From: an uncultured Pseudomonadota bacterium
Lineage (GTDB): Bacteria; Oederibacteriota; Muellerivitia; Muellerivitales; Muellerivitaceae
NCBI GenBank assembly: GCA_963843375.1
Contig: CAWJKT010000009.1
Span: 96,001-160,000, forward strand
Reading direction: 5' to 3'
Length of the DNA: 64,000 bases
Shown here piece by piece: positions 275 to 42,005 of the stretch (the first letter of the stretch is position 1; every line of letters starts with the position of its first letter). The position numbers and the translations under genes are program-made. Below the pieces are notes generated by a model. The model saw only the letters and a list, made by a program, of their open reading frames with translations. It did not search any database and was not told the origin of the DNA.

Positions 275-302
275 TGTCCACGACGGGGACCCTTCGTAGC
301 AG
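275..302 (+). repeat. Palindromic putative recombination site 1
   Basis: TGTCCACGACGGG-GA-CCCTTCGTAGCAG; right arm partly degenerate. Confidence 0.85.
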
Positions 303-345
303 TTAAAGCCCCTTTTGAGTCCAGGTTTAACCAAAGTGATATCAA

Positions 346-885
346 ATGAAACCTATCGAAACCCAACGTCTTGTGCTTCGCCAGTGGAACCCTTCGGATC
401 GGGAAGCCTTTTACAAAATGAATTCCGACCCCGTCGTGATGGAATATATGCCAAAAATCCTTACCCGTGAGGAAAGCGACGGGCTGATGGCCCGGATTGA
501 AGAACATTTTGATAAACACCATTTCGGCCTTTGCGCGGTCGAGGAGAAAGAAACCGGAGCCTTAGTCGGCTTCATGGGCCTTTCCGTTCCCCGTTTTGAG
601 TCCCACTTCACTCCCTGCGTTGAAATTGGGTGGCGGCTGGATAAGGCTTTTTGGGGGAAGGGCTACGCGACGGAGGCCGCTGTGGCCACGTTGGCGGCTG
701 GGTTCAATCTATTTGGCCTGGAAGAAATCGTCTCTTTCACGTCACCTTTGAATCAACGCTCCATTTCGGTGATGAAACGATTAAAAATGACAAGTAATCC
801 TTGGGACGATTTCGAGCATCCGGCGCTTCCGGAAGGGCATCCCTTGCGAAAACATGTCCTTTATAGGATTACCAGATCGGTATGA
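346..885 (+). CDS. GNAT (RimJ/RimL-like) N-acetyltransferase
   Basis: IETQRLVLR start, EIGWRL..FWGKGYATEAA motif. Confidence 0.9.
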   Translation: MKPIETQRLVLRQWNPSDREAFYKMNSDPVVMEYMPKILTREESDGLMARIEEHFDKHHFGLCAVEEKETGALVGFMGLSVPRFESHFTPCVEIGWRLDKAFWGKGYATEAAVATLAAGFNLFGLEEIVSFTSPLNQRSISVMKRLKMTSNPWDDFEHPALPEGHPLRKHVLYRITRSV

Positions 886-893
886 TTATTACC

Positions 894-921
894 TGTCCAC
901 GACGGGGACCCTTCGTGGACT
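894..921 (+). repeat. Palindromic putative recombination site 2
   Basis: TGTCCACGACGGG-GA-CCCTTCGTGGACT, 8 bp after the GNAT stop. Confidence 0.9.
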
Positions 922-1105
922 AAAAAGTCGGATATTATCCAGTGAAAAGCATTTCCCCAAAACAATTCCCGCCTCCATTTCGTTGAACCCGTTCCCATAA
1001 GTTGAAAAAATCCTTTATTTTCGGGCCTTGACGAAAAAAACGAGGGTTCCTAATTGTATTTCCACTAAAGGTGTTGTTTTCAAAAAACAGTAAGGAGGAA
1101 TAACC

Positions 1106-1552
1106 ATGAATGGTTCTGGTCTTTTACCCCAAGGTTTTAAGATGGACAAAAGTCAATGGGGCCGCCTTTTGGACGATGTTTTGGAAATGCGGCCCGGGTT
1201 TAACCTTCAAGGATTTGGGACCGGCTGGGTGCCGCCCTTTGACGTGGAGGAGAACCAGGATGAGTACCGGTTTTACGCCGAAATGCCGGGCATGAAACAG
1301 GAGGATATCAAGCTTTCTTTGGCGGAAAACATCTTGACGGTTTCGGGCGAGAAAAAACCGCCGTATGACACCGAAAAAAGGAATTTCCACAGGTTGGAAA
1401 GATCCTACGGTACATTCCAGCGAAGTTTTTCCCTCCCCCACCTTATAGACACCAACAAAATCAAAGCTACCGTCAAGGATGGAATCCTGGAGATTATCGT
1501 TCCCAAGAGTGCGGAATCGAAACCCCGAGCAATCGCTGTAACCGCTGGATAA
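1106..1552 (+). CDS. Hsp20/alpha-crystallin small heat shock protein
   Basis: PPFDVEE..AEMPG..LTVSGEK..ERSYGTFQRSFSLP..DGILEI.VPK; RBS AGGAGG. Confidence 0.92.
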   Translation: MNGSGLLPQGFKMDKSQWGRLLDDVLEMRPGFNLQGFGTGWVPPFDVEENQDEYRFYAEMPGMKQEDIKLSLAENILTVSGEKKPPYDTEKRNFHRLERSYGTFQRSFSLPHLIDTNKIKATVKDGILEIIVPKSAESKPRAIAVTAG

Positions 1553-1561
1553 TCAAGGGTG

Positions 1562-1598
1562 AGGCAGGGCATTGCGGTGCCCTGCCTTCCTTTCTGTT
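1562..1598 (+). terminator. Probable intrinsic terminator after hsp20
   Basis: AGGCAGGGCA-TTGCGG-TGCCCTGCCT followed by a T-rich tract. Confidence 0.6.
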
Positions 1599-1829
1599 TA
1601 AATTTCTGGTTCAAGGAGGAATTATGAACCTTCTTCGATCAACTGAATTAACACGACGCTTTCTGCAACACCGGCGCTTGAGCCGCCTTCGGGACTTTAT
1701 TTCTCATCCCCGGAAGAAACTCTCCAAAAAAGACGGCAAGGATGAGGATATTCCTAAAAATCCCTTTAGCGGGAACCCGCCTTTCGGCGGAATTCCCGCT
1801 TTGGCGTTTTAACCCACGGTGGTTCGCGA

Positions 1830-2721
1830 ATGTGGCGTTGGATTGATCAATTTTCCATTCAAAAGCTGATTTCCTCTTCCATCTCCAAGAGGCTTGTCGT
1901 CTTTATTTCGCTTTCTTTCCTCCTTCTGATCGATCTCTTGGATTATTTGATTGGCGGATTGCTGCATCTCACGGTCTTTCTCTTGGCACCTGTAGCCTTT
2001 GTCACCTGGAACATCGGCATTCAAAGCGGCCTGTTGTTTTCGGTCCTTTGCGCCAGTTACTTGATGGTGGATTACGCCCTCCATCCTTTGATGTTTCCTC
2101 ATCCCTGGGTCGTATTGTGGGACGACGACCGTCATGACCATTTATTTCTCTGTTATTTGCCTCATTTTGACTTCCCTGAAGAGTGAGATGGACAAGGCCT
2201 TACAAAAGTCCAAAACCGACGCTCTGACGGGACTCATGAATTCGGCGGCTTTTTATGAAATCGCCGAACAAGAAAGGGAACGTTCCAACCGTTACCACCA
2301 TCCCTTCACCCTTTGTTTCCTGGACTTGGACAACTTCAAGAAGGTGAATGATATCTATGGGCACCTGATGGGGGACAAACTGCTCAAAAAGGTATCGTTG
2401 ATCCTACAAGGCCAGGTGCGATCTAGCGACCGCGTCGCCCGGCTGGGCGGGGACGAATTCGTTGTCCTGTTCCCAGAAACTGGGCCGGAGGCCGCTGAAA
2501 GATTGAGCTCGCAATTGCACCAAGCCATTAACACGTGTTTAAAAGAGGAGTTTCCTCTGGTGACCCTCAGTATGGGAGTGGTGACCTATTACGATGTGCC
2601 CGAAAAAATCGACGAGATTGTTCATGCCGCCGACCTTTTGATGTATGAGGCGAAAAAATCCGGTAAAAATTCACTCCGTTGTCAGACGGTCGGCTTGTCG
2701 GCAGAAGCGGCGCGGGAATGA
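1830..2721 (+). pseudogene. Membrane-anchored GGDEF diguanylate cyclase split by a frameshift near 2120
   Basis: Hydrophobic ORF 1830-2186 overlaps ORF 2134-2721, which carries DALTGL, DLDNFKKVND and RLGGDEF; real indel or sequencing error. Confidence 0.7.
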
Positions 2722-2855
2722 ATTTTGCAAAAGCGAAAATGAATGCCGGAAAAATAAACTCTTGATTTTTTTAAAAAAGGTTCCTAATAAAATTTTTAAA
2801 AGTTGGCTGAACAATGAATGGTTAAATTTTTAAAAAGAAGAAAAGGAGGCCTGTC

Positions 2856-3815
2856 ATGAAACGTATATTGATCGAGACAACCGTAGTTGCCGCTGTAGCT
2901 GTTGGGCTAGCTTTCGCGTTACCTTCGCTGACCAATCTAACTTATGGCGGTACCTCGCCGACTCCCGCCGCCCAATCCAACGAAAAGTCTGGCGTGAGCC
3001 AAAAGGTCGGGAACGGTCAAAATCCACAGGGGCAAGTCGCTGACAAAAGGAAGCAAATTACTTCCGAGGCCATGGCCGCTATTGAGGAAACCAGGAGCGC
3101 CTTGAAATGCCTGGATGAAAATAAGAAGGACGAGGCCCTTCATGCCCTTGAGCTGGCCACCGGAAAATTGGACTTGATCCTGGCCCGGGACCCCAATCTG
3201 GCCCTGGCTCCAACCCGCGTGAGCGAAGCGACCTATGATGTTTACGCCGATATTGACAAGGTAAAGACCGCTCGCGGGGACGCGGAGGCCTTTTTGGTGG
3301 CTGGGAAAGTCCCGGAAGCCCGCCAGATTCTGGACGCCCTTCGCAGTGAGACGGTCATCAGCGTCTCGAATATTCCTCTGGCGACTTATCCCGATGCCAT
3401 CAAAAAAGCCGTCAAATTCATAGACGATGAAAAAATGGAAGACGCGAAGGATACGCTCCAAACGGCTTTGGATACGCTGGTCGTGACCGATACGATCATC
3501 CCCCTCCCAGTAGTTACAGCCCAGGATATTTTGAAAGACGCGAAACAATTGTCGGAGAATGACAGCCGCTCTGCGGATGATAATAAAAAACTGAGCGAAC
3601 TGCTGGCTGAAGCCCGTTCAAAATTGGAATTCGCCCAAGCCCTCGGATACGGTACCAAAAAAGATTTTAAGGACTTATACGGTGAGCTGGATGTGATTAA
3701 GGAAAAAACTGATTTTGGCAAGTCGGGAAAAGGGTTTTTTGACGATGTGGAGGCTTCTCTCAAGAAGCTGTTCGAAACCTTACAACCCATTAACCATTTT
3801 TCCTCTAAGGGATGA
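2856..3815 (+). CDS. YfdX-family protein (secreted)
   Basis: Signal peptide; LELATGKLDLILARDP, IPLATYPDAIK and LEFAQALGYG motifs. Confidence 0.8.
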   Translation: MKRILIETTVVAAVAVGLAFALPSLTNLTYGGTSPTPAAQSNEKSGVSQKVGNGQNPQGQVADKRKQITSEAMAAIEETRSALKCLDENKKDEALHALELATGKLDLILARDPNLALAPTRVSEATYDVYADIDKVKTARGDAEAFLVAGKVPEARQILDALRSETVISVSNIPLATYPDAIKKAVKFIDDEKMEDAKDTLQTALDTLVVTDTIIPLPVVTAQDILKDAKQLSENDSRSADDNKKLSELLAEARSKLEFAQALGYGTKKDFKDLYGELDVIKEKTDFGKSGKGFFDDVEASLKKLFETLQPINHFSSKG

Positions 3816-3966: not shown

Positions 3967-3994
3967 TGTCCACTTCGGGGAGCCGTCATGGACA
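3967..3994 (+). repeat. Palindromic putative recombination site 3
   Basis: TGTCCACTTCGGG-GA-GCCGTCATGGACA. Confidence 0.8.
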
Positions 3995-4296: not shown

Positions 4297-4324
4297 TGTC
4301 CACGATGGGGACCCATCGTGGACA
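4297..4324 (+). repeat. Palindromic putative recombination site 4 (perfect 13-bp inverted arms)
   Basis: TGTCCACGATGGG-GA-CCCATCGTGGACA. Confidence 0.92.
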
Positions 4325-4532: not shown

Positions 4533-4869
4533 GTTAGTTAAGGCCCGACTTTTCAGCCATTGCTTTCATCGGAGTCTTGCCACACAAACTGTTGTGACAC
4601 CCGCGCCGTCCAGTGGTCCCTCGCCACGTTGATCGGGCTAAAAAATCTTCTCCTGCATAATCCTCAAAGCCTTGGGTGTTTAATAAAAGAACATTGTGCT
4701 TTTATCGACTGAAACCCGGCGTTTTTGTCCCGATTTGTTGAAAAAACCGGAAACCGCTTCGCAAACCGATCCTAAACGGGAAATGAACATTTCGATTCTT
4801 TTCAAAGCTTCGGTTTTGTTCATGCTGGGCATCCTATCGTTTGCGACTGGATTTCAAAATAACCAACTG

Positions 4870-4885
4870 GGTGACTTAAGTCACG
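4870..4885. promoter_or_regulatory. Crp/Fnr-family (HcpR-like) operator
   Basis: GGTGA-CTTAAG-TCACG upstream of the DUF2249 operon; near-identical context at 14879. Confidence 0.65.
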
Positions 4886-4949
4886 GCGTTAAAAAGGTCT
4901 GTGCCATAAACTGGAACCATCGTTGAAGATTATCAAGGAGGAACTAGTC

Positions 4950-5774
4950 ATGGGTAATACGGTCCAATTGGATGTCAGGAATATAATGCCGCGAGAGCGA
5001 CACCCGAAGATTTTCGATATGTTCGACAAATTAAAGGAAGGAGAGTCCTTTGAACTGGTCAATGACCATGACCCTAAACCCCTTTATTACCAGTTCGTGC
5101 ACGAGCGGCCCAACCAGTTCAAGTGGGAATACCAAGAAGAAGGCCCCGAAGTTTGGAAAGTATCTATCCTCAAAACGTCCAATTTTTCCAAGGCAGAAGT
5201 CTCCCCCCAAACCGAAGTTAAACCCAAATGGGCAGCTTCTCTCGACTCGTCCCATGAAGTCTTGTTAGATGTTCGGCCCATGATTGAAAAAGGAGAAGAA
5301 CCCTTTCAGGCCATCATGAAGGCGGTCAAAGGCCTTGGGGATGGCCAATATCTCCGATTGGTCAACTCTTTTGAGCCCGTACCTCTTTACGCAGTATTGG
5401 GCAAGCAGGGATTTGAGATTTTCGCCGAAACAAAAGACGGTATCTGGAATATTTATTTCAAAAAACCTTCTGGTAAAGGTTCGGTCCCACCGGCTGGGGT
5501 GAAAACCGATTCCCCTTCGGATGACCTCTTTGACCGGATGGTGGTTCGCAAGCCACGGGTGGAAGTGGATGTTCGGGGGCTTATGCCGCCCGAACCCATG
5601 ATCCGGATTTTCGAGGAGTTGAACTCTCTCCCTCCGGGTGGAGTGATTTTTGTGCATCATCACCGGGAGCCGGTGATGTTGTACGACAAATTAAGGGAAA
5701 GAGGTTATGAGGGCGTAACCCGCAAGTTGGGAGACTCGGACTACAAGGTCCTCATCTGGAAAAAGGAAGGATGA
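4950..5774 (+). CDS. Triple DUF2249-domain protein
   Basis: Three LDVR...DHDPKPLY / SFEPVPLY / HREPVMLY units. Confidence 0.85.
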   Translation: MGNTVQLDVRNIMPRERHPKIFDMFDKLKEGESFELVNDHDPKPLYYQFVHERPNQFKWEYQEEGPEVWKVSILKTSNFSKAEVSPQTEVKPKWAASLDSSHEVLLDVRPMIEKGEEPFQAIMKAVKGLGDGQYLRLVNSFEPVPLYAVLGKQGFEIFAETKDGIWNIYFKKPSGKGSVPPAGVKTDSPSDDLFDRMVVRKPRVEVDVRGLMPPEPMIRIFEELNSLPPGGVIFVHHHREPVMLYDKLRERGYEGVTRKLGDSDYKVLIWKKEG

Positions 5775-7120
5775 CCATGGAAGACTCCGCTGTTCTTAAA
5801 ACCCAGTTGCCACCACCGGTGCCTTCGGCATCAACGACCATGCCTTCTTTTCAAATGGCACCGTCCTTCCGGTTGGTGGGGTTGTACCTGAGTACAGGCA
5901 TCACTATTTTCATAGTCCTTTGCCTACTTTTGGCGGTTTATTCCTCCGAATTAAAGGGTGAATTTTTTCAGGGGCGGCTCTTAGGTCTCACCCACCTGAC
6001 GGTGCTGGGCTGGGTATCTATGGTCATTTTCGGAGCCTTGTTCCAGCTGGTACCTGTGGTTTTCGAGGCACCTCTGTTCAGCGAACCCCTAGCCTTCATC
6101 CAATATGCCTTGTTCCTGCCGGGTCTTTTGGGAATGGTCCTGAGCTTCTGGAATTTCAAATTGGGGATTCCACTTCTTGTTTCGGCGGCTTTGACGGCCT
6201 CGGGCTTTTTACTTTTCATCATCAACGTAGGCGTCACACTGGCCCGCGCTAAAAGCCGTTCCCTAACCGGTCTTTTCATCGGTACTGGGCTTTTTTACTT
6301 GGCCCTGACCGCCACATTAGGATTTCTCTTGGCCTTGAACCTAGCCTATCCCTATATCGTACGCCGCGACCACTTGGACCTTTTGAAGATCCACGCCCAT
6401 TGGGGGCTGGCCGGATGGATCGGCATGATCATCATGGGCGTGGCGTTGAAACTCATCCCCATGTTCAGCCTAGCCCACGGCTTTTCCACCACGCCAGCCA
6501 AATGGGCCTACGGGCTTTTCAACGCGGGGCTCCTGGGACTGGCCCTGGGCTGGTGGATCAACCCGGAGGGATGGATAGTAAAAATCGGGGGCGCCCTGCT
6601 CGCCTTGGGGGTGGCTTTTTATCTTTACCAGGTATATTTCATCCATCGATCCCGCTTGAGGCGCATGCCCGACGTGGGGATGCGGTACTCGCTTCTGGCA
6701 TTCTCGCTACTTTCCGTGGCGGCGGGAATAGGGCTCGGCCTTCTTTTTTTTAACTTTCAGGATGGATGGCGGGATGGAGCGGTCCTCACTTATGCTTCGG
6801 TTCTACTGTTGGGGGCCTTCTCGCTCCTGATTGTGGGCCAGCTTTACAAGATCGTTCCTTTCCTCGTCTGGTTTCACACCTACTCCAGCCAAGTAGGACT
6901 AAAGCCGGTCCCGCTCCTGAAAGACCTATACAGCGAAAAAGTGGGGAACCGCCAATTCTGGCTGATGAGCGTGAGCCTGCCCTTTCTTTGGGCTGGAATT
7001 TTTTTTAATCAGGACTCCCTGAGGCTGGCCGGATCTATCGGCCTGGTTTTATCGGCCGTCTTCTTCGGCTGGAACATGTTCAACCTTTTCCGTAGGGGGT
7101 TTTCCCATGGCAACAGCTGA
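5771..7120 (+). CDS. Polytopic membrane protein, heme-copper-oxidase-subunit-I-like DUF2249 partner
   Basis: THLTVLGW..FGALFQLVPV, HAHWGLAGW, GQLYKIVPFLVW; many TM helices. Confidence 0.7.
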   Translation: MTMEDSAVLKTQLPPPVPSASTTMPSFQMAPSFRLVGLYLSTGITIFIVLCLLLAVYSSELKGEFFQGRLLGLTHLTVLGWVSMVIFGALFQLVPVVFEAPLFSEPLAFIQYALFLPGLLGMVLSFWNFKLGIPLLVSAALTASGFLLFIINVGVTLARAKSRSLTGLFIGTGLFYLALTATLGFLLALNLAYPYIVRRDHLDLLKIHAHWGLAGWIGMIIMGVALKLIPMFSLAHGFSTTPAKWAYGLFNAGLLGLALGWWINPEGWIVKIGGALLALGVAFYLYQVYFIHRSRLRRMPDVGMRYSLLAFSLLSVAAGIGLGLLFFNFQDGWRDGAVLTYASVLLLGAFSLLIVGQLYKIVPFLVWFHTYSSQVGLKPVPLLKDLYSEKVGNRQFWLMSVSLPFLWAGIFFNQDSLRLAGSIGLVLSAVFFGWNMFNLFRRGFSHGNS

Positions 7121-7403
7121 GGAAATCCGCCAGGCCCTTACCTGGGTCATTGACCCCGAAATCGGTCTCAACATTGTCGATTTAGGCCTCGTCTACAACA
7201 TCGAGATTGAGGAAAAAAAAGCCGTTATTACCATGACGCTGACTACCCAAGGCTGTCCCATGCACGACAGCATGAAGGTGGCCGTAGAGAACGTGGTCAA
7301 ACGCCTGGAACCGGACAAGGAAGCGGAAATCCGGGTGGTATGGGACCCGCCTTGGACACCGGAAATGATGACTCCGGGTGCCAGGAACTACTTGGGTGTG
7401 TAG
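7107..7403 (+). CDS. DUF59/SufT-PaaD-like metal-sulfur cluster assembly factor
   Basis: VIDPEIGLNIVDLGLVY..MTLTTQGCP..VWDPPWTPEMM. Confidence 0.9.
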   Translation: MATAEEIRQALTWVIDPEIGLNIVDLGLVYNIEIEEKKAVITMTLTTQGCPMHDSMKVAVENVVKRLEPDKEAEIRVVWDPPWTPEMMTPGARNYLGV

Positions 7404-7449
7404 GGCTCCGCAATGGGGTGAATATCTCTTAGGAATGAGGAAAGTTTTC

Positions 7450-8895
7450 ATGAATGAACCGATGATTATTCAAGGAGGCATGGGGATCGCTGTTTCCAAT
7501 TGGAAACTGGCTAGGGCCGTAGCCCTATTAGGCCAATTGGGAGTTGTCTCCGGGACGGCATTAGAAAATGTCATGGCCCGCCGGCTTCAATTGGGGGACC
7601 CGGATGGTGCCATGCGCTGGGCCTTAGAACGTTTTCCAGGTAAAGGCATCGCCCAAAGGATACTAAAGCGATATTTTATCGATGGCGGCAAAGCAGATGG
7701 GGTTCCCTTTAAAAACGCCCCCATGTTCTCCCTCAATCCGCCCCAGGAACTCCTGGAGCTGACCGTCGCGGCTAATTTCGCGGAGGTTTTTTTGGCTAAG
7801 GAAAACCACAAGGGGTTGGTGGGCATCAATTATCTTGAAAAAGTTCAGTTTCCCACCCTGCCATCCCTCTTCGGGGCGCTCCTGGCAGGCGTGGATTATG
7901 TCCTCATGGGCGCCGGAATCCCAAGGGCGATCCCGGCCATATTGGACAAACTGGTTTCACACCAGGAAGTAAAGTTGAAAATCAACGTGCATGGAGCCGC
8001 GTCCGGGGACGATTTTCACGCAACCTTTAATCCAAAGGACATAATAGTTTCCCCTCCGGTTAAATTAAAACGCCCCAAATTCATCGCCATTGTATCCTCC
8101 GAGGTGTTAGCGATGACCCTGGCCAAAAAATCCACGGGACGAGTGGACGGGTTCGTCATCGAGGACCCCACGGCGGGTGGGCATAACGCCCCACCAAGGG
8201 GATTGCTTCAGCTGAACGACAAGGGCGAACCCATTTACGGTTCTAAAGACAAAGTGGATCTGGCGACATTCCGCAAGCTGGGATTGCCTTACTGGCTGGC
8301 CGGTTCTTGCGCGGACCCGAAAAAATTAAAAGAGGCGCTGACCCAAGGCGCGGCGGGCATCCAGGTGGGAACGGTTTTCGCCTATTGCGAGGAATCCGGA
8401 TTGGATGAAAGCATTAAGAGAAAGGTATTTGAAAAAGCCTTAAGGGGGAAGGCGGAAGTTTTTACCGATCCCGTGGCATCACCTACGGGTTTTCCTTTCA
8501 AAGTTGTCCGACTGGAAGGCACCTTGTCCGAGGTGGAGGAGTATGCGGCCCGGCCCCGGATTTGCGACTTAGGTTACTTGCGTATAGCTTATAAAAGAAA
8601 AGACGGTTCGGTTGGTTACCGCTGTCCAGGGGAACCGGTGGAGAGCTACCTGCAAAAAGAAGGAAAAAAAGAGGACACAAAAGGAAAAAAATGCGTTTGC
8701 AACGGACTTTTTGCGGGAATTGGATTGGCACAGGAACAAAAGGACGGGTATAAGGAAAAACCACTGGTGACCTCGGGGGACGATTTGTCGCGTATTACGG
8801 CATTCTTAAAAGGGAAGAAGCTTTCCTACAGCGCGGCAGATGTGATTGAGTATCTTTTGAATTCTTCAGAATTTTCGTTGCCTCACGTTGTTTAA
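7450..8895 (+). CDS. Nitronate monooxygenase-family flavoprotein
   Basis: PMIIQGGMG, GAGIP, AGGHN and GIQVGT motifs. Confidence 0.8.
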   Translation: MNEPMIIQGGMGIAVSNWKLARAVALLGQLGVVSGTALENVMARRLQLGDPDGAMRWALERFPGKGIAQRILKRYFIDGGKADGVPFKNAPMFSLNPPQELLELTVAANFAEVFLAKENHKGLVGINYLEKVQFPTLPSLFGALLAGVDYVLMGAGIPRAIPAILDKLVSHQEVKLKINVHGAASGDDFHATFNPKDIIVSPPVKLKRPKFIAIVSSEVLAMTLAKKSTGRVDGFVIEDPTAGGHNAPPRGLLQLNDKGEPIYGSKDKVDLATFRKLGLPYWLAGSCADPKKLKEALTQGAAGIQVGTVFAYCEESGLDESIKRKVFEKALRGKAEVFTDPVASPTGFPFKVVRLEGTLSEVEEYAARPRICDLGYLRIAYKRKDGSVGYRCPGEPVESYLQKEGKKEDTKGKKCVCNGLFAGIGLAQEQKDGYKEKPLVTSGDDLSRITAFLKGKKLSYSAADVIEYLLNSSEFSLPHVV

Positions 8896-9023
8896 GCTGA
8901 ATCGGGAAAGCGAATTGTGCGGTGATCACTGTTTCTTGGGCCGGTTGCTGTCCCTTACGCACCGCCAACTCGGTATTGCGTATGAAGATTTATCTAAAAA
9001 AACTAATGAAAGCGGGGTGCAAG

Positions 9024-9467: not shown

Positions 9468-9508
9468 TCTGGACCTGGTTTCTGGACAGGTAGTGTCATA
9501 AAGAGGCG

Positions 9509-30188: not shown

Positions 30189-30229
30189 TGGTTGTCGAAT
30201 AAACTTATAACCGGCCAAGTTTAGGAAGT

Positions 30230-31028: not shown

Positions 31029-31041
31029 TCGTTGCCCCCCT

Positions 31042-32265: not shown

Positions 32266-32348
32266 CGCACCTATGCCCTATCTTTTAATTCAAAACCCGT
32301 CCTAAAGTATAAGGGATTTAAGATGACCGCAACGGCAAAGGAGCGTTT

Positions 32349-32765: not shown

Positions 32766-32807
32766 AGCTGAAGGGTTTAATCGTTAACTATCCATCAGGG
32801 AGAGCGT

Positions 32808-33356: not shown

Positions 33357-33407
33357 TTCAGGTTTTACCGGTCGTTCGCGAAAACGAATCCTTGAAAGGA
33401 AAATAAA

Positions 33408-33782: not shown

Positions 33783-33796
33783 ACGGGCGAGGATAC

Positions 33797-35026
33797 ATGA
33801 ATAAAATTTTTTTGAACTACGCTGCCGGGATGGTCTTGGCCCTGTCTTCCATACCCGCTTTCGCGGATATGCCGACAATCTCCCCGACTCCGACCAACAC
33901 ACAACCGACATTTGCATTTGGCGGCATGGTGGACGCTTACTATTCCTATAACTTCCCTAACGCTTCGGATAACACGGTGGGTCAAGGCAACAACTCCAGC
34001 GTTTATTTTTATAACGGTAAAGACGACAGCCTGGCTTTGGGGCTGGCAGAATTAACCGCCAACGCGACCCAAGGTCAAGGAAGTATTCATTTAGTCTTGG
34101 CGGACGGTATCAGTGCCTCCCCCAGCGCGGGCGGGGCGGGACTCAATCCATCCAACCCCCAGGGCATCGATGTGCTTCAAGCTTATTTTTCTTATAAACC
34201 CTCGGACTGGATCCTCAGCGCGGGAAGGTTTGTGGGCTGGACGGGAGCGGAAGTCATCGAAAGCCAGTACAACTGGAACTATACCCACTCGCTTCTTTTT
34301 CAATACACCCGTCCCTATTGGACCACCGGCCTTAGCGCGGCCTATCAACCGGACTCTGTTTTTAAAATCACGGGTTACGCGGTGGATGGTTGGAACAACG
34401 CCTCGGGGGCGGGCATCGGCAAGACTTACGGTTTTCAAATGGGCTTGACGCCTGACTCGGTTTGGAAATTCACGTTGAATGGCCTCATTGGTCCGGGTTC
34501 GGGCACTTCCTACGTCAATTTCGCCGGAACGAACGCCGCCAATTTTGTGGGGGAGGCCATTGTCATGTTCAAGGCCACGGACAAGCTTTCCTTCGCCCTA
34601 CAGGCGGACTATGTCGGCCAGGACGTGACCGGCGCTTCGACTCGAGATGTTTGGGGTTCGGGCGTGGATGCATGGGGTATGGCCCTTTATGGCCGTTATC
34701 AGTTTGAAAAAGATTGGGCCTTGGCTTTGAGAATTGAAAATTTGGAAGACAGCGAAAACATGTTCGGCCTCTTCGGAAACAATTTTATGCTTCCCGGCAA
34801 CTCGCTGGCGGTGGCCCCTGCTAAGGATGTGGAAGCCCAAGAATTGACCGTGACTATCGAACACAACTTGATGCCGAATTTAGTATTTAAAGTGGAAGGC
34901 CGAGCGGACGAGGCTTTGTCCGGCAACCAGGAAGTTCCCCTCACCAAAGGACCCTTTATCCCCGGCAGTGTGAACGATCAGGGCGACGAATTTACCTGTA
35001 CAGCTAGCGCGGTCTATAGCCTCTAA
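33797..35026 (+). CDS. Outer-membrane beta-barrel/porin
   Basis: Signal peptide; G.VDAYYSYNF, QAY..Y, G.EVIES..NWNYT.S.LF. Confidence 0.7.
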   Translation: MNKIFLNYAAGMVLALSSIPAFADMPTISPTPTNTQPTFAFGGMVDAYYSYNFPNASDNTVGQGNNSSVYFYNGKDDSLALGLAELTANATQGQGSIHLVLADGISASPSAGGAGLNPSNPQGIDVLQAYFSYKPSDWILSAGRFVGWTGAEVIESQYNWNYTHSLLFQYTRPYWTTGLSAAYQPDSVFKITGYAVDGWNNASGAGIGKTYGFQMGLTPDSVWKFTLNGLIGPGSGTSYVNFAGTNAANFVGEAIVMFKATDKLSFALQADYVGQDVTGASTRDVWGSGVDAWGMALYGRYQFEKDWALALRIENLEDSENMFGLFGNNFMLPGNSLAVAPAKDVEAQELTVTIEHNLMPNLVFKVEGRADEALSGNQEVPLTKGPFIPGSVNDQGDEFTCTASAVYSL

Positions 35027-35108
35027 TTTCGTTTGAGAATTCTTTTCTAGCGTTGCCTTCCACTTATTTGGTTTAGAAACGCCATTAAAATCATCAAAAA
35101 ACTTACCC

Positions 35109-35140
35109 TTGACTCTGGAGTATACTCCAGCACCTATACT
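35109..35140 (+). promoter_or_regulatory. MerR-type promoter/operator
   Basis: TTGACT-20 bp-TATACT with the perfect palindrome CTGGAGTATACTCCAG in the spacer. Confidence 0.85.
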
Positions 35141-35156
35141 CGCGATTGGAGCGGAT

Positions 35157-35537
35157 ATGAAAACTAATGAAACTGTTTTGCAAATTGGACAAGTTTCCAA
35201 AAAAAGTGGAATGTCCATCGACACCATTCGTTATTACGAAAAGGAAGGTTTACTGAAAAAGCCGTCCCGGAGCGAAGGCGGTTTCAGGGTCTATTCCCAG
35301 GAAGCGGTAGACCAATTGGTTTTTATTCGAAAAGCCCAAGCTATGGGACTGACGCTTAAAGAAATTAAAAAAATTATGTGTTGCGGAGATAAAGGGCTTG
35401 AACCTTGCTGTGACCTGACGGTTGATTTGTTCGCGGCAAAAATCAACGAATTTGAAACCAAAATCTCGGAACTCGAAGAGATGAAGAAAAAGTTAAAGAC
35501 CGTATTGGGTGGTTGGGTAACAAAAAAGAGGAAATAA
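35157..35537 (+). CDS. MerR-family heavy-metal-responsive regulator
   Basis: IGQVSK..TIRYYEKEGLL..R.EGGFR.Y; Cys pairs CC...CC. Confidence 0.9.
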   Translation: MKTNETVLQIGQVSKKSGMSIDTIRYYEKEGLLKKPSRSEGGFRVYSQEAVDQLVFIRKAQAMGLTLKEIKKIMCCGDKGLEPCCDLTVDLFAAKINEFETKISELEEMKKKLKTVLGGWVTKKRK

Positions 35538-35547
35538 GGGGGCTGTT

Positions 35548-35985
35548 ATGGCGCTAAAGGTTTTGATTTTATGCACAAAGAATTCCTGTCGCTCACAAAT
35601 GGCGGAAGGTGTATTGAAACATTACGGTGGCGACAAGTTCATTGTAGAAAGCGCGGGTTTAGAACCTACACACGTTAATAAGAACGCCATCAAAGTCATG
35701 AAAGAAATCGGTATTGATATTTCCAATCAAAGTTCAAAGAACGTTGTAAGTTTCTTGGGGCAGTATTTTGGATTCATTATCACGGTTTGTTCTGATGCGG
35801 ATATGAGATGCCCAATTTTCCCAGGCGTGGCACAGCGGCTTTATTGGCCGTTCAATGACCCGCCCCAAACGGAAGAAGAGTCGGCTGAAATACTGGATGA
35901 ATTTCGTAAAGTTCGTGATGAAATTCATGTGAGATTCAAAGAAGTGGCTGAGAAGGGGTTTGGCGCTTTCACGGCTAAGAAGTAA
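35548..35985 (+). CDS. arsC: Arsenate reductase (LMW-PTP type)
   Basis: CTKNSCRSQMAEG, ITVC..CP, W.F.DP. Confidence 0.9.
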   Translation: MALKVLILCTKNSCRSQMAEGVLKHYGGDKFIVESAGLEPTHVNKNAIKVMKEIGIDISNQSSKNVVSFLGQYFGFIITVCSDADMRCPIFPGVAQRLYWPFNDPPQTEEESAEILDEFRKVRDEIHVRFKEVAEKGFGAFTAKK

Positions 35986-35986
35986 C

Positions 35987-36187
35987 ATGACCGGCGAGAT
36001 GGCGTTGTTTCGATGGTTTTTGGGAATGGCACAAATAACAGGCTCGACTATGGCGTTGGTGTTTTTGTTTAGAACTGGTTTGAGTCCGTTGTTCTGGGTG
36101 ACTTTTGCGGTCACAACTATTTTTACCATCACCAGCCGAATCCTATTTTGGCGGGGAAAGCATTGGAAGTCGTTCTTTACGGAATGA
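35987..36187 (+). CDS. Small membrane protein
   Basis: Two hydrophobic segments within the ars operon. Confidence 0.45.
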   Translation: MTGEMALFRWFLGMAQITGSTMALVFLFRTGLSPLFWVTFAVTTIFTITSRILFWRGKHWKSFFTE

Positions 36188-36209
36188 TTCAAATTGAGGG
36201 GACATAACG

Positions 36210-36614
36210 ATGAGAGTTCATGTATCGATTAACGTCAAAAACGTCAGTGAATCGGTTGAGTTCTATGAAAAGGTATTCGGCGTCAAGCCACAAAAGCAGA
36301 CAGCCGATTACGCTAAATTTGATCTGAAAAAACCCGCTCTCAATTTTTCAATGCAGTCTCATTCAGACAGACCCATTAGTCGGGTTACCCATTTCGGGGT
36401 TGAAGTTGATTCGCCTATGGAACTTCAGGATTTTCAAAATAGGCTTAACGCAAGTGGTATTGCCGTAGAGGAAGAAAAACAGACTGCTTGTTGCTTTGCC
36501 CGTCAGGATAAAGCTTGGTTCAAAGACCCAGACGGCAATTCCTGGGAAATATTTCACGTGTATGAGCAGTTGCCAATTCATCCTTCTTCCAATTCCAGTC
36601 AGTGTTGTGCCTAA
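36210..36614 (+). CDS. ArsI/CadI-family VOC metalloenzyme
   Basis: RVHVSINV, HFGVEV, CCFARQDK.W..DPDGN.WE. Confidence 0.88.
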   Translation: MRVHVSINVKNVSESVEFYEKVFGVKPQKQTADYAKFDLKKPALNFSMQSHSDRPISRVTHFGVEVDSPMELQDFQNRLNASGIAVEEEKQTACCFARQDKAWFKDPDGNSWEIFHVYEQLPIHPSSNSSQCCA

Positions 36615-36641
36615 TTAATCCATCAGATAAAGGAAATGTAA

Positions 36642-37703
36642 ATGAGTGATCTTTCTAAAAAGATGAATGTCTTTGAACGTTACCTCACCCTTTGGGTTGT
36701 GCTTTGTATGGTGTTGGGTGTTTTGATTGGCAAAGTTTTACCCCAGGTTGTTACGGCGTTACAGCAAATGGAATTTGGCACAGGTAGCCATATCAACATT
36801 CCTATAGCTATTCTGATTTGGTTGATGATCTACCCGATGATGTTGAAGATAGACTTTGCCTCAATTAAGAACGTCGGCAAGCGTCCCAAAGGACTCTTGG
36901 TAACCTTGTTTGTTAACTGGCTCGTGAAGCCTTTCTCAATGGCTTTTTTGGGATGGTTTTTCTTTAAGGTGCTTTTTGTGCCCTTCTTGGGAGCGGAAGT
37001 GGCTAACCAGTATTTGGCAGGTGTCATCATCTTAGCCGCCGCACCTTGCACCGCTATGGTATTTGTCTGGTCTTATTTAGCGGGCGGGGATGCCGCTTAC
37101 ACGTTAGTTCAAGTATCGGTTAATGACCTGATTATGCTGGTCGCTTTTGCTCCCATTGTTCGGTTCTTGGTATCGGGCGCGTCGGGGTTGGAAGTTCCTT
37201 TCCAAGTTCTTTTATATTCAGTCCTTATTTTTGTAGTTATTCCACTCTTACTAGGCGCTGTCAGTCGTTGGCTCCTCATCCAAAAGAGTGGAGCCAAATG
37301 GTTCAATGAAAAGTTTTTGCCCGTATTCCAACCCATCACCATATTGGCTTTGCTGGCTACTCTGGTTTTGATCTTTGCCTTTCAGGCTCAAAACATTACG
37401 GGTAGGTGGTTGGATGTATTTTTAATCGCGATTCCCATTCTTATCCAGGTTTACTTTAACGCGGGGCTTGCCTATGGTTTGATGAAGCTTTTGAAAGTGC
37501 CTTATTCAGTGGCCGCGCCTGGCGCGTTGATTGGTGCCTCGAATTTCTTTGAATTGGCGGTCGCTACTGCGATCGCTTTGTATGGCCCGGGCAGTGGAGC
37601 GGCTTTAGCAACGGTAGTGGGGGTATTGGTCGAAGTGCCTGTCATGTTGTCGGTTTGTTCCATTTGTACTAATACAAAGGGTTGGTTTGGAAAGGAAAAA
37701 TAA
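36642..37703 (+). CDS. acr3: ACR3 arsenite efflux transporter
   Basis: FERYLTLWV, NWLVKPF, APCTAMVFVW, GASNFFELAVA, LVEVPVML. Confidence 0.95.
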   Translation: MSDLSKKMNVFERYLTLWVVLCMVLGVLIGKVLPQVVTALQQMEFGTGSHINIPIAILIWLMIYPMMLKIDFASIKNVGKRPKGLLVTLFVNWLVKPFSMAFLGWFFFKVLFVPFLGAEVANQYLAGVIILAAAPCTAMVFVWSYLAGGDAAYTLVQVSVNDLIMLVAFAPIVRFLVSGASGLEVPFQVLLYSVLIFVVIPLLLGAVSRWLLIQKSGAKWFNEKFLPVFQPITILALLATLVLIFAFQAQNITGRWLDVFLIAIPILIQVYFNAGLAYGLMKLLKVPYSVAAPGALIGASNFFELAVATAIALYGPGSGAALATVVGVLVEVPVMLSVCSICTNTKGWFGKEK

Positions 37704-37706
37704 ACC

Positions 37707-38126
37707 ATGAAAAAGATTCTTTTTCTTTGCGTCGCGAATTCTGGCAGAAGTCAAATGGCCGAAGGAATCGCAAAAGAACTTTGGGGCGATAGCGCCCTTA
37801 TTCAAAGCGCCGGGTCAAAGCCATCATTGGTGAATCCCTATTCCATCAAGGTTCTGGCAGAGATTGGGATTAATGCTTCAGGCCAATATTCCAAGTCGGT
37901 GGCGGATATCGACCCTTCAACAGTGGATACGGTTATTACTCTTTGCGCCGAAGAAGAGTGTCCTGTTTTCTTGGGTAAGGCAGAGAGGATTCATTGGCCC
38001 TTGCCCGACCCTGGTGTTGGGGCCAATAGCGAAGAAGAAAAGCTTCAAAGTTTTCGTAAAGTTCGCGATGAAATAAAAAGCCGATTGAATAAGTTTAAAA
38101 ACGAAATGGGCGTTAAGGCAATTTAA
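37707..38126 (+). CDS. arsC: Arsenate reductase (second copy)
   Basis: CVANSGRSQMAEG, ITLC..CP, HWPLPDP. Confidence 0.88.
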   Translation: MKKILFLCVANSGRSQMAEGIAKELWGDSALIQSAGSKPSLVNPYSIKVLAEIGINASGQYSKSVADIDPSTVDTVITLCAEEECPVFLGKAERIHWPLPDPGVGANSEEEKLQSFRKVRDEIKSRLNKFKNEMGVKAI

Positions 38127-38161: not shown

Positions 38162-38189
38162 TGTCCACGGCGGGGACCTGTAGTAAACA
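38162..38189 (+). repeat. Palindromic putative recombination site 8 (diverged right arm)
   Basis: TGTCCACGGCGGG-GA-CCTGTAGTAAACA, 35 bp after the arsC stop. Confidence 0.78.
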
Positions 38190-38708: not shown

Positions 38709-39110
38709 ATCTTAATAAATAAATTGCTTTATACGACGCCGCTTGAATCAACCGTGTCCCAAACCCTTGTGGACACGGTTTCGAGCTTAAAGAGCAAACC
38801 GATACAAACGGGAGGCGGAACATGGTTGACGCCGTTATAAAGAAATACGGGCCTTTTTTTGAAAAATTGATACTGTGGGTAATAGAAGGTAAAAAATCCC
38901 CTTTTTGTCGGGACTATCCCCCAAGGTTGAAAACAACTCAAAAATCTTTTCGGAAAATGCGCAATAAAAACAAAGCCTTGGCTGTTCTGGCTCACGCTCC
39001 AATCCACCAAAAAGCTTAAAATGATTACTGGAAGAGGTTCTTGATAGGATACCGAGAAGGTGCCAGCGGAGTTATTCTGACGTGGTAAGAAAAAGAATCC
39101 TCCTCTAGAG

Positions 39111-39149
39111 GAACCCCGGATGGTTGTTAATCCCGGGGTTTTTTATTTT
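39111..39149 (+). terminator. Intrinsic terminator just upstream of site 9
   Basis: AACCCCGG...CCGGGGTT followed by TTTTATTTT. Confidence 0.65.
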
Positions 39150-39165
39150 AGGGTTGTCCACGACG

Positions 39166-41106
39166 GTGCGTCCAGAAAAGGCAGGTGTGTTCAGCAAGAG
39201 ATAGTCTTGCATGGGTAATAGCCAAAGCCCATTAGCTAGGATGGCAGGCAAGCGGGAAACCTAATGTCTGAAGCCCATCAACAAAGCCATCGAAAGGATG
39301 GTGAGCGAGTCGTCGGGCCGTAACGAAAGTAAATGCACAGGTGGCCCCGAAAACAATTGCCTCGAAGGCCGAGTCCGCCGTCGTGGGACGAAGGCATCAT
39401 GGGCCAGCGCAGAGATATGGCTGAAGCGCTGGAACACTTCGGCGGGGTGATAGCAACGGCACGATGACAAGGACACGCCAAGCAACTGGAGAAACCCTCC
39501 TTGCCCCAAGCAGAAATGCTTGGAGAAGGGTAAGCCGTATAACCGTGACGCGGGAAAACGGCTGAAGGCGAGAGGGTTTAGGATGGGTTCATGGTAGCGA
39601 CGAAGCGTGGTAATGCCCGTGGAGCGAAGGAACCCTGCTGCTGTTAAGTCTCTCGACAAAACGGAAGGCAGTGACGGTATGAAAAAAACGTCTATCAACC
39701 TGCAAGACCTGAGACGAGAGATATACGTCAAAGCGAAGGCTGAAAAGAACTGGAGTTTCTGGGGACTGTACACTCATGTTTGCAAGATGAAAACGCTTCA
39801 ACAGGCATACCGGATGGCTAAGGTAAATAACGGAGCCCCAGGAATAGATGGGGTAACGTTTGATGCCATTGAGGGAGCTGGAGTGGAGCCATTTCTGGAA
39901 AGCATCCGGGGTGAATTAGTTCAAGGCACGTATAAGCCCGCTCGAAATCGGAAGAAGGAAATACCCAAGGGAAATGGGAAGGTAAGAGTCCTTGGGATAC
40001 CGAACATTCGGGATAGAGTAGTCCAGGGAGCGATGAAGCTCATTCTGGAGCCGATTTTTGAGGCCGATTTTCAAGAAGGGTCCTATGGGTATCGACCCAA
40101 GCGGACCGCTCATGCGGCTGTGAACAGGGTAGCATCAGCAATCGTTTGTAGAAAAACCCGAGTCATCGATGTAGACCTCAAGGCATATTTCGACACGGTA
40201 AGGCATGACCTGCTGATGAAGAAAGTTGCCCGAAGGGTTGAGGATGAAACGGTGTTGGGATTGTTGAAGATGATCCTGAAAGCCAGCGGCAAAAGAGGAG
40301 TCCCGCAGGGAGGGGTTATTTCTCCGCTTCTGGCAAATCTCTACCTCAACGAGGTGGATAAGATGCTGGAAAAGGCAAAAGAAGTGACCCGGCAAGGGAA
40401 GAACGACTATATCGAATATGCGAGGTTTGCTGACGATATGGTGATCCTTGTTAATGGATATCCGCAATGGGAATGGTTGGCAAAGGCTGCCTACCGAAGG
40501 TTACTTGAAGAGTTGACCAAGCTCGACTTACAAATCAACACGGACAAGACACGGATAGCAGACCTAACGAAAGGAGAAAGTTTCGGATTTCTGGGGTTTG
40601 ACTTTCGACAGGTGAAAACCCGTCGAGGGAAATGGGGAGTGAAGTTCACGCCGAAAATGAAGGCTCGGACAACACTTTTAGGCAAGCTCAAGGAAACATT
40701 TCGAAGCTTTCAATCCCAGCCGGTGCAGAGGGTGATTGAGCTGATCAATCCCAAACTGCGTGGATGGGTCAATTACTTTCGGATAGGAAATTCTAGTCGT
40801 TGTTTTAATTACGTGGAAAGATGGGTCGAGAATAAAATCAGAAGGCACATGATGCGTGCGAAGAAGCTTGATGGTTTTGGGCGGAATAGGTGGAGTAGGG
40901 AATGGATAAATAAGTATCTGGGGTTGTACAGAAGTTACCAAATACGTTATTACCAAGAACCGAAAGCACTACCAGTCCAATAAGTCACATAAACTTTGAC
41001 ATGAAGACAACAGGTGAGCGTAGTGCGGGAAATCCGCACGCTACGTTCGAGGAGGCGGGGACTGGAAACGGAGCCAGAAGGCCACCGCACCAGCCCTCGA
41101 CCCTAC
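39166..41106 (+). mobile_element. Group II intron (AGC catalytic triad, IIB-like)
   Basis: 5' GTGCG; domain V GAGCGTAGTGCGGGAAATCCGCACGCTACGTTC at 41016-41048; 3' end CCCTAC; internal RT ORF. Confidence 0.92.
39679..40983 (+). CDS. ltrA: Group II intron reverse transcriptase/maturase without endonuclease domain
   Basis: GAPGIDG, RVLGIP.IRDRVVQ, SYGYRP, PQGGVISPLLAN, RFADD, FLGF, LRGWVNYF. Confidence 0.93.
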   Translation: MKKTSINLQDLRREIYVKAKAEKNWSFWGLYTHVCKMKTLQQAYRMAKVNNGAPGIDGVTFDAIEGAGVEPFLESIRGELVQGTYKPARNRKKEIPKGNGKVRVLGIPNIRDRVVQGAMKLILEPIFEADFQEGSYGYRPKRTAHAAVNRVASAIVCRKTRVIDVDLKAYFDTVRHDLLMKKVARRVEDETVLGLLKMILKASGKRGVPQGGVISPLLANLYLNEVDKMLEKAKEVTRQGKNDYIEYARFADDMVILVNGYPQWEWLAKAAYRRLLEELTKLDLQINTDKTRIADLTKGESFGFLGFDFRQVKTRRGKWGVKFTPKMKARTTLLGKLKETFRSFQSQPVQRVIELINPKLRGWVNYFRIGNSSRCFNYVERWVENKIRRHMMRAKKLDGFGRNRWSREWINKYLGLYRSYQIRYYQEPKALPVQ

Positions 41107-41159
41107 AGGAGCCATCGTGGACACCTAATTTCCTTGCTTGAGAATAACCCCAAGTGATT

Positions 41160-42005
41160 TTAGGATTTACGGCCCTTGACCGCCGAGTTCCTTTTTAAAA
41201 CCCTCTGAACCTTATCCCAAAGCTTCTTCGATATGAGGGGTTGGTATTTGCCCTCGTAATGTTGTCCCTTCCATTGGAATGTTCCCGAATACATCTTGTT
41301 GGTGAGGATTTTGTGAACCGTACTCCGGGGAAGTGGCTTATTGCTTTTGCGAAAGACTAATCCCTTGGCTTTGAATTTCTCCGTTATCTCGTTGAGGGAA
41401 TAATCCCCTGAAGAATAGGTTTTGAATAGACGGATTACAAAAGGAGCCAAACGGCGATCCGGTTTGATGGTTCTTTTTCCCGCCTTTCCCAAAATGTTCT
41501 TATAACCCATGGGAGCCACCGAAGGCCAAATCCCCTGTTCCGCTTTTTCCGTCATGCCTTTACGAGTCTCTTCCGAAAGGTTATCCACGTAGTTCTTGGC
41601 CATCAAGACCTTAATCCCGTGGATGAACTTGTCGGCGGATTTGGAGTGGCTTGAAACGACGGCCCCTTCCTTGACCAAATGGATCTCAATGTCGATATCC
41701 TCCAAACAGACGTAATCTTTGAAATTGCGGTATAGGCGGTCGGTCTTCTCGACCAGCAGGTACTTGCAGTTGGAGTTGTTGATTAGGAAATCCACCATCT
41801 TCGCGAAGCCTACCCGACCCGATTGTTTGGCGGTTTCCACGTCGCGGAATTCCTTCACAATCTCGAAACCCTGGGTTTGACCATATTGACGAAGAAGCCT
41901 CAACTGGGCGGGGATTGAGAAGCCCTGCTTTTCTTGTCCCTTCGAGGACACCCGGACATAGAGGACGGCCTGGATGGCTCGACTGACCTTGCGATTTGAT
42001 TTCAT
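41160..42005 (-). CDS. Serine recombinase (catalytic plus recombinase domain; no zinc-ribbon/coiled-coil)
   Basis: YVRVSS catalytic Ser, DRLYR, APMGY, ILTN.MY.G, PLISKKLWDKVQ, then stop after 281 aa. Confidence 0.9.
   Translation of the reverse strand: MKSNRKVSRAIQAVLYVRVSSKGQEKQGFSIPAQLRLLRQYGQTQGFEIVKEFRDVETAKQSGRVGFAKMVDFLINNSNCKYLLVEKTDRLYRNFKDYVCLEDIDIEIHLVKEGAVVSSHSKSADKFIHGIKVLMAKNYVDNLSEETRKGMTEKAEQGIWPSVAPMGYKNILGKAGKRTIKPDRRLAPFVIRLFKTYSSGDYSLNEITEKFKAKGLVFRKSNKPLPRSTVHKILTNKMYSGTFQWKGQHYEGKYQPLISKKLWDKVQRVLKRNSAVKGRKS

Follow-up and report, generated by a model that had tools for sequence, protein, structure and literature searches.

In a 64,000-nucleotide stretch of DNA from an uncultured bacterium of peat soil (hereafter the window; G000:C9:96001-160000, part of contig C9 of the 80%-complete metagenome-assembled genome (MAG) G000), nine copies of a 28-bp palindrome with the consensus TGTCCACGAYGGG-GA-CCCNTCGTGGACA (two 13-bp arms around a central GA; 13-GA-13) divide an array of gene blocks that ends at the gene for a 281-residue short serine recombinase (SR). 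The palindromes are very probably the sites at which gene cassettes cross over, and they mark a real, lineage-specific cassette system with central-crossover palindromes, which is neither an integron nor similar to repetitive extragenic palindromes (REPs). That SR is the enzyme of the exchange is about an even call, and for the whole explanation, cassette system and SR together, we estimate a probability of about 0.5. The original prediction, made from the letters of this stretch, was of a cassette platform run by a serine recombinase; mobile cassettes and an exchange at the site centre have been found, and the evidence for the role of SR is circumstantial. Genomes are labelled G000–G045 and loci L0xx–L1xx below, and the family set comprises 31 genomes.

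All nine copies stand where they had been predicted, every one with GA on the + strand. Four are near-perfect in a pattern search (894..921 with one mismatch; 4297..4324, 17363..17390, and 17875..17902 with none), and four are decayed, mostly in the right arm, and were recognized by motif and profile or by comparison (275..302 and 3967..3994 with four mismatches each, 30230..30257 with six, and 38162..38189 with five; the decay is in the right arm at 275, towards its end, and at 38162). The ninth copy is split into its first 11 nt (39155..39165) and last 17 nt (41107..41123), also on the + strand, and shows two mismatches once the 1,941-bp insert is removed. At ≤3 mismatches the pattern retrieves exactly the four good copies from the window, none being expected from 100 shuffles. 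With a profile derived from 30 genomic copies, all nine places are detected, three of them weakly, and there are no matches from 41125 to the window end; the next profile match on the contig lies ~105 kb beyond the last site region of the window. The absence of sites to the right of the recombinase, the 36-bp gap between the last site and the recombinase stop codon, and the location of the sites at boundaries of unrelated gene blocks, with which the Pfam annotation agrees, are all as originally described.

The sites are uniform in construction. Among 338 pooled copies, position 14 is G in 335 and position 15 is A in 335, and the central GGGGACCC is fixed. The 13-bp left arm is nearly invariant, varying only at positions 9 and 10, and the right arm is more variable, at positions 19-22. 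Inverted arms of 12-13 bp around an asymmetric central dinucleotide, as in serine-recombinase sites, are thus present.

The position of the exchange was mapped on a pooled set of 294 distinct sites from the arrays of G000 and G001 and from fetched loci, by an all-against-all comparison of the 400 bp on either side of every site. The comparison yielded 39 pairs of sites with a similar flank on the left only and 127 with one on the right only, some flank pairs being 100% identical over 400 bp between different genomes. For the crossover position, we used the pairs with flank identity ≥95% that remained after filters, which are not independent events; below 95%, point mutations blur the association of arm and flank. 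In the 12 left-only pairs, the right arm differs in nine and the left arm alone in none. In the 12 right-only pairs that do not involve an intron, the left arm differs in four and the right arm in none, the right arm being kept even when it is a rare variant. Another 34 pairs, whose common right flank is an intron inserted after the site, served as a control; both arms vary among them, as expected because the introns are inserted next to unrelated sites. Rare variants at position 11 segregate with the left flank and those at position 18 with the right flank, and one site (L150) is a recombinant, with the left part of one relative and the right part of another joined between positions 11 and 19. 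Because arm variants travel with their own flanks, the crossover lies, as judged by these alignments, in the central six bases (positions 12-17). A serine recombinase would be expected to cut with a 2-bp stagger and a 5'-phosphoserine link; the comparison narrows the crossover to positions 12-17 only. Breakpoints at the site in relatives, which the original prediction had led us to expect, are seen as shared flanks that stop inside it.

A linkage between arm and flank could also come from exchange within the longest identical stretch. The palindromes might then be REP-like elements or hairpins of 3' untranslated regions with an RNA or structural role, the cassette pattern arising from occasional homologous or microhomology recombination among relatives. 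We consider this improbable. Being palindromes, the sites do fold as hairpins (-10.7 to -14 kcal/mol as DNA for the good copies), they lie at a median of 18 bp past stop codons in the sense orientation, and 19 of the 294 sites are directly followed by group II introns, which home beside stem-loops (PMC1702495). A selected hairpin was nevertheless rejected, since positions 10 and 19 show no covariation: when position 10 is C, position 19 is G in 57%, A in 27%, and T in 14%, and when position 10 is T, it is G in 55%, A in 29%, and T in 14%, so that ~40% of the sites are mismatched at this would-be pair. A terminator was likewise rejected, because the downstream flank is A-rich without a T-run. 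Each gap also holds a single palindrome, within co-oriented arrays, and the copies are not spread between core genes across the genome; their 28 nt are near-identical across 12 genera in which orthologous DNA is 65-82% identical. A length of 28 bp is at or below that usually needed for RecA-type exchange.

Arrays in relatives differ in their content. As the original prediction anticipated, congeneric arrays differ exactly at sites. One case is a 12-kb block of the window (18033..30248, + strand; defined by Pfam and by comparison with G001), which recurs at G001:C1:382841-395056 inside another array, 95% identical over the first 2 kb and 100% over the remaining 10 kb, and whose neighbour blocks are elsewhere in G001 or absent. 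At its right end the identity runs through the unusual left arm of the site at 30230..30257, through GA and CCCG, and then ends just past the site centre; the left arm of this site is common to the G001 copy and the right arm is not. Elsewhere, an array of G000 and a different one of G001 share a 654-bp one-gene cassette, 88% identical from one site to the next. A second array of G000 on the same contig (C9:242.5-272.2k, 29.6 kb) splits a cluster of polysaccharide genes; the G001 counterpart of the array is 705 bp long, with one small open reading frame (ORF) between two decayed sites, in a cluster that is otherwise contiguous, and the break between the two genomes falls at a degenerate site.

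The 12-kb block is also of interest for its content. Positions 18085-30188 encode an N-type ATPase operon (with AtpR and an ATPase_gene1 protein), together with acetate kinase, phosphoketolase, and a class I aldolase, as one mobile unit, 10 kb of which shows 100% identity between two congeneric species. Public sequencing data were examined as assembled contigs of peat metagenomes, in which uncovered parts are uninformative. The block and its flanks were found in different samples, with contig ends or loose ends at 17387/17397 (in the site at 17363..17390 and just past it), 18036, and 30230/30252; these ends indicate no more than that the blocks are found separately in different peat samples, and joints at sites were not seen in these assembled contigs.

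The window array itself lies between a TraG-like fragment (C9:~91k) and an island with ArdC, RadC, NYN, WYL, and DISARM-like genes. G001 has two islands with the same flanks as the window array and different cassettes, without SR, and a third island of 40 kb on G001:C2, inserted relative to G000:C7, in which SR is the only recombinase and faces a short array. The ends of this third island share only a short TTATTATA-like core, and its right junction is blurred by an insertion sequence. From the window context, these G001 islands, and the 29.6-kb array, the arrays travel in islands resembling integrative and conjugative elements (ICEs) and sit at chromosomal hot spots. A single 105-kb SR island spanning both arrays of contig C9 was considered and rejected, since the polysaccharide genes by the second array are backbone common to G001. 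A tRNA gene at the start of the second array (C9:242.5k), suggested by a T-loop-like string, was also dismissed, ARAGORN finding none there.

Across the genome, nhmmer (E<1e-3) finds 46 sites on 7 of the 32 contigs of G000. Their nearest-neighbour distance has a median of 1,290 bp, compared with 37.7 kb for random placement (the minimum of 1,000 trials being 12,969 bp). Adjacent sites no more than 15 kb apart are co-oriented in 33 pairs and not in 3, and 14 of these 36 spacings measure 496-940 bp, the size of one small gene. At ≤2 mismatches, 18 of the 24 other family genomes examined have the motif, spanning 12 genera, compared with 0 of 16 genomes from other families of the order or phylum. 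An exact-match scan of one genome per species over 185,579 species gave 112 stretches, and the 80 listed among them are from MAGs labelled FCPU426 or Firestonebacteria or from unnamed or mis-named bacteria; IMG/VR viral contigs gave 0 exact matches. REPs and bacterial interspersed mosaic elements are dispersed between core genes in both orientations, often several per gap. A REP-like dispersion over the genome, which would have spoken against the predicted platform, is not what we observe: with one site per gap in co-oriented clusters, the motif is clustered, co-oriented, lineage-restricted, and not REP-like.

The cassettes resemble those of integrons. In a plain ORF scan (≥50 aa) around 200 sites with ≥600 bp on both sides, a co-directional ORF ends within 30 bp upstream in 123 (median, 18 bp), and the next co-directional ORF starts at a median of 48 bp downstream. 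Co-oriented cassettes with one site after each ORF, an integron-like trait, are therefore present (33 of 36 pairs; 123 of 200 sites). The cargo consists of PIN, MazF/PemK, Phd, and BrnA modules, GNATs, AraC regulators, and small unknowns, and the arrays also hold large blocks such as the 12-13-kb ones of the window. Single-gene cassettes of this kind, co-oriented and with many toxin-antitoxin, GNAT, and unknown genes among them, are what a classical integron, or a cluster of attC sites lacking an integron integrase (CALIN), would present if its IntI had been missed, an explanation to which we give hardly any credence. The integron-integrase model (NCBIfam TIGR02249) exceeds its cut-off in 0 of the 31 family genomes, a 99%-complete one included, in keeping with the predicted absence of IntI; G000 reaches at most 47.5 bits, far below the cut-off of 265. 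An attC site is an imperfect palindrome of 57-141 nt with extrahelical bases, recombined at one end (the R' box), whereas the sites here are 28-bp near-perfect palindromes exchanged at positions 12-17.

Group II introns are a further feature of the arrays. At the 19 sites mentioned above, the introns (RF02003, RF00029) begin 2 nt past the right arm. The intron of the window differs in that it sits inside the SR-proximal, ninth site, between positions 11 and 12: the insert (39166..41106, + strand, boundaries ±2 nt) matches Rfam RF02003 with 119 bits and contains an ORF (39607-40983) with reverse transcriptase and maturase domains (Pfam RVT_1 and GIIM), its start, GTGCG, following directly after position 11. 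At gathering thresholds, Rfam reports only group II intron families in the window. The position of the 19 introns matches what is described for class C group II introns, which insert at terminators and other inverted repeats (PMC1702495) and at attC sites (PMC3001079). A terminator-like hairpin (CCCCGG...CCGGGG followed by a T-run) is located at 39112-39149, just 5' of the intron-split site, and the intron begins ~17 nt past the T-run. At L071 (three copies) and L069, the site-targeting introns measure only ~0.8 kb from the 5' domain to the domain V/VI matches, and for this reason they are probably ORF-less derivatives.

SR is encoded on the - strand at 41160..42005 and consists of a catalytic domain and a recombinase domain (Pfam Resolvase PF00239, 4e-21; Recombinase PF07508, 2.5e-15). 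Its catalytic motifs YVRVSS and DRLYRN are intact when aligned to TP901-1 and 3GUV, and the nucleophilic Ser and the conserved Arg/Asp residues are present. The structure model (mean pLDDT, 73.6) matches the N-terminal and recombinase domains of the SPbeta, Bxb1, phiC31, and LI integrases (root-mean-squared deviation to 4KIS, 2.7 Å over 132 columns). The zinc ribbon with coiled coil (PF13408) is absent from SR and its 19 closest homologues (69-98% identity; all 275-283 aa) and present in longer relatives; homologues at ≤61% identity are mostly longer and have PF13408. Because the ratio of nonsynonymous to synonymous substitution rates is 0.05-0.16 among eight short copies, where the synonymous rate is measurable, the short form is kept by purifying selection.

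At all loci that carry a short SR or part of one, a site lies ~15-110 bp beyond the SR 3' end. These loci are in G000, G001, G022, G042 (three copies), and G045, a fragment in G018, L056, L168, L170, L171, and a ~110-bp remnant in G021; at L169 the sequence ends inside the arm. The site is antisense to the SR gene in all loci except L168, and its arm on the SR side is frequently decayed. Four SR 3' ends that are closely related each adjoin a different left flank, the flanks being unrelated to one another, and so the SR-site junction recombines. In the G021 remnant (L108; G021:C4, ~54.3k), ~110 bp of the SR 3' end are left between a perfect and a degenerate site, which suggests that the SR gene itself can be trimmed by recombination at pseudo-sites. 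A metagenome scan with SR retrieved 80 loci: 4 are close relatives (≥78% identity), all on contigs of ≤3.1 kb, and the 76 with ≤61% identity gave no convincing site, only two weak half-site matches.

The full-length relatives (505-529 aa) show a comparable adjacency. Their genes end inside or against tRNA genes, with tRNA-Asn at 7 of 11 metagenome loci, tRNA-Gln in G012, and tRNA-Ser in G001, so that the attachment site lies in the integrase gene's own 3' end; a crossover site at the recombinase 3' end is, by the same placement, a family trait. These relatives (L172-L187, L026, L030) are widespread, their genes ending inside opposite-strand tRNA-Asn, tRNA-Gln, or tRNA-Ser. In the LI integrase, the recombinase domain and the zinc ribbon together cover a 25-bp half-site, with the zinc ribbon in the outer part and shifting between bp 16-24 and 11-19 (PMC3783163). 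By analogy, SR, which has neither zinc ribbon nor coiled coil, would presumably require no more than the inner ~13 bp and would not discriminate attP from attB (see also PMC5499577), and a 13-bp half-site would fit SR because the zinc ribbon binds the outer part in LI integrase.

Several observations weigh against the reading as a whole, and particularly against SR as its enzyme. The association of the sites with the recombinase, as predicted, stands insofar as every SR locus abuts a site and the anatomy fits; it fails in site-rich genomes without any serine recombinase. Short SR occurs in only 5 of the 31 family genomes, and in G005, G021, G023, G010, and G016, with 20-49 pattern hits (about twice the actual number of sites), neither a Resolvase domain nor a tblastn match (E≤1e-3) was found. 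Most arrays, including five of the six in G000, have no adjoining recombinase gene, and the sixth cluster, on C18, is part of an element that has a tyrosine integrase and is located at tRNA-Ser. Unlike intI, SR is located at the downstream, convergent end of the array. A centre rich in G+C is uncommon among the crossover sites known for serine recombinases, and a crossover at positions 12-17 is just as compatible with a tyrosine recombinase that has a 6-bp overlap. At the left border of the 12-kb block, 130 bp to the right of the site at 17875, there is a decayed right-arm-like stretch and no clean site centre; the 130-bp remnant in between (17903-18033) has its polarity relative to the flank flipped compared with G001, and so does the site at L168. 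No excision circle or empty junction was seen in the assembled contigs, and G000 is only 80% complete. Among integrons, attC clusters without an integrase are common, which the recombinase-free arrays here resemble.

Some of these points suit a different enzyme acting on the same cassettes with the same central crossover: a tyrosine recombinase with an 11-6-11 (Xer/dif-like) or 10-8-10 site, or an enzyme carried on plasmids or elements outside the MAGs. SR would then be its own island's integrase that landed at an array site, or a passenger. We regard this as a possible, somewhat doubtful alternative. It accords with the arrays being common in genomes without any serine recombinase, with SR belonging to an island-integrase family and being the sole recombinase of the 40-kb G001:C2 island, and with a ~370-aa tyrosine recombinase family found in 26 of the 31 family genomes at 1-10 copies, of which one copy in G001 is ~5.5 kb from an array and another heads an island of the window's type. 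This family is, however, also present in the site-free G017, G009, G004, and G007, and the number of copies per genome does not track the number of sites, so its phyletic pattern was discarded as non-discriminating evidence. Moreover, five of the six G000 arrays have no tyrosine recombinase as a neighbour, and in G000 and G001:C2 SR is at the array end, not at the outer border of the island. An SR that recognizes one 28-bp site should recognize all of them, and hence this alternative would largely merge with the preferred explanation, in which SR works the cassette sites.

According to that explanation, the sites would be the crossover points of a gene-cassette system confined to a single family within the uncultured phylum FCPU426. 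A cassette would comprise one to about a dozen genes with a right arm at its head and a left arm at its tail, the latter usually ~18 bp past the stop codon. Two sites would recombine at their central six bases (12-17, around the asymmetric GA), and cassettes would thereby be excised, inserted, or swapped while the arrays stay co-oriented. Carried in ICE-like islands such as that of the window and placed at chromosomal hot spots, the cassettes would cross between genera. We infer that SR, or some other dedicated recombinase, catalyses the exchange, and that the cut has a 2-bp stagger. SR at the array end is the most likely candidate; it would derive from tRNA-targeting large serine integrases with the att site at their own 3' end and would have shed the zinc ribbon/coiled coil, the module by which attP is distinguished from attB. 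We propose that, through this loss, all 13-2-13 sites would be treated alike and both excision and integration could run, allowing SR to capture, excise, and reshuffle cassettes within a genome, from single genes to 12-kb metabolic operons. Tentatively, and at slightly less than even odds, the system may be a serine counterpart of the integron, with a directionality-less SR, equivalent sites, an attI-like SR-proximal site, and ICE-like islands that spread the arrays between genera.

The remaining contents of the window are as follows. Between the first two sites is a single-gene cassette for a GNAT acetyltransferase (346..885, + strand; Pfam PF13302), and between the second and third a three-gene block for Hsp20, GGDEF, and YfdX proteins (1106..3815, + strand; Pfam). 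The fourth and fifth sites enclose a 13-kb block (4696..17311; Pfam) with DUF2249/TusA, Fe-S assembly, NMO-like, hemerythrin, multicopper-oxidase-like, Crp-type regulator, ScdA-like, and cupin genes. A single-gene cassette with a 135-aa ORF of no family (17444..17851, + strand) precedes the sixth site, which is followed by the 130-bp cassette remnant (17903..18033), identified by genome comparison and having an inverted relative across a site in G001, and then by the 12-kb block. The 8-kb block at 30270..38126 (Pfam) encodes a chromate transporter, DoxX, PAP2, a porin, MerR, two low-molecular-weight phosphatases (ArsC-like), a glyoxalase, and an SBF/ACR3-like carrier. Beyond SR, the adjoining site-free island (42539..64000, continuing past the window) contains PRiA4_ORF3, ArdC, RadC, NYN, two WYL regulators, and the DISARM-like genes. 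The latter are five co-directional genes at 52985-63899, encoding a 1,258-aa helicase, a 604-aa MrfA/DUF1998-type Zn-domain protein, a PLD nuclease, a DrmE-like protein, and a C5 cytosine methylase; the set has the composition of a class 2 DISARM defence system and a much lower G+C content (0.37-0.41).

Two other elements were encountered in G000. At C18:44-62.6k (L166), an integrative element at tRNA-Ser encodes a 516-aa integrase-like ORF, a DUF5906 protein, and giant unknown proteins, and carries five copies of the site, mostly degenerate. A 369-aa tyrosine integrase, of the family with 1-10 copies in 26 of the 31 genomes, is 100% identical between G000:C9:31181-32287 and G001:C4:244739-245845, pointing to a very recent transfer of another element.

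To our knowledge, integrons are the only well-understood system for stockpiling and reshuffling single-gene cassettes, and they need a special tyrosine recombinase and folded single-stranded sites. The arrays described here would be a second solution, unrelated to integrons, from an uncultured soil phylum, in which short duplex palindromes are exchanged at their centre, moving between genera cassettes that include the 12-kb phosphoketolase pathway/N-type ATPase block and metal-resistance blocks. If SR is the enzyme, it would illustrate how the loss of a directionality module turns an integrase into a general shuffler of cassettes, and the 281-aa protein and the 28-bp site would form a directly testable pair and possibly a compact recombination tool. 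The original prediction did not recognize the arrangement as a described system, and a word search of the open-access literature found no description of it.

A close likeness is to integrons and CALINs, which share the co-oriented, mostly promoterless-looking cassettes of unrelated function with many toxin-antitoxin and unknown genes, the single site per cassette just after the ORF, and the recombinase at one end of some arrays, with many arrays having none. Group II introns target the sites in both (cf. the IIC-attC introns; PMC3001079). The arrays here differ in having no IntI and a 28-bp near-perfect duplex palindrome without bulges, in their candidate enzyme, a serine recombinase at the downstream, convergent end, and in units that may be multi-operon blocks of 8-13 kb. 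Since the crossover is at the site centre, each cassette here, unlike those of integrons, has half-sites at both ends.

In Acinetobacter plasmids, the 28-bp pdif sites of XerC/XerD divide accessory DNA into modules that move from replicon to replicon without an adjoining dedicated recombinase, and are targeted by insertion elements (PMC6449649, PMC13141974, PMC10132070). The two have in common short core sites bounding shuffled accessory modules. The sites here are co-oriented (33 of 36 adjacent pairs) and not alternating, bear no likeness by eye to the dif consensus, and occur in chromosomal or ICE-borne arrays of an unrelated phylum.

Small serine recombinases act on sites (res site I, hix, gix) of 26-28 bp, in which inverted 12-13-bp arms flank an asymmetric 2-bp centre that determines the polarity. 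The present sites resemble these in arm length and asymmetric 2-bp centre and differ in the G+C-rich centre and in that neither accessory sites nor an enhancer were seen, and SR has a large-type recombinase domain instead of a C-terminal helix-turn-helix. With the large serine integrases (LI/A118, SPbeta, Bxb1, phiC31, and the tRNA-targeting relatives), SR shares the catalytic and recombinase domains by sequence and fold and, in the case of the tRNA-targeting relatives, a crossover site adjoining the recombinase 3' end; it is distinguished by its length of 281 aa against 505-529 aa, by the missing zinc ribbon and coiled coil, and by a repeated 28-bp palindrome in place of a distinct attP/attB pair of ~40-50 bp. 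In arrays of cis-mobilizable and integrative mobilizable elements, and in the staphylococcal cassette chromosome, whose Ccr is a serine recombinase, units without an integrase accumulate at a single attachment site and are mobilized in trans. Compared with such tandem accretion, the units described here are as small as one gene, are bounded by identical palindromic sites, and occupy many loci per genome.

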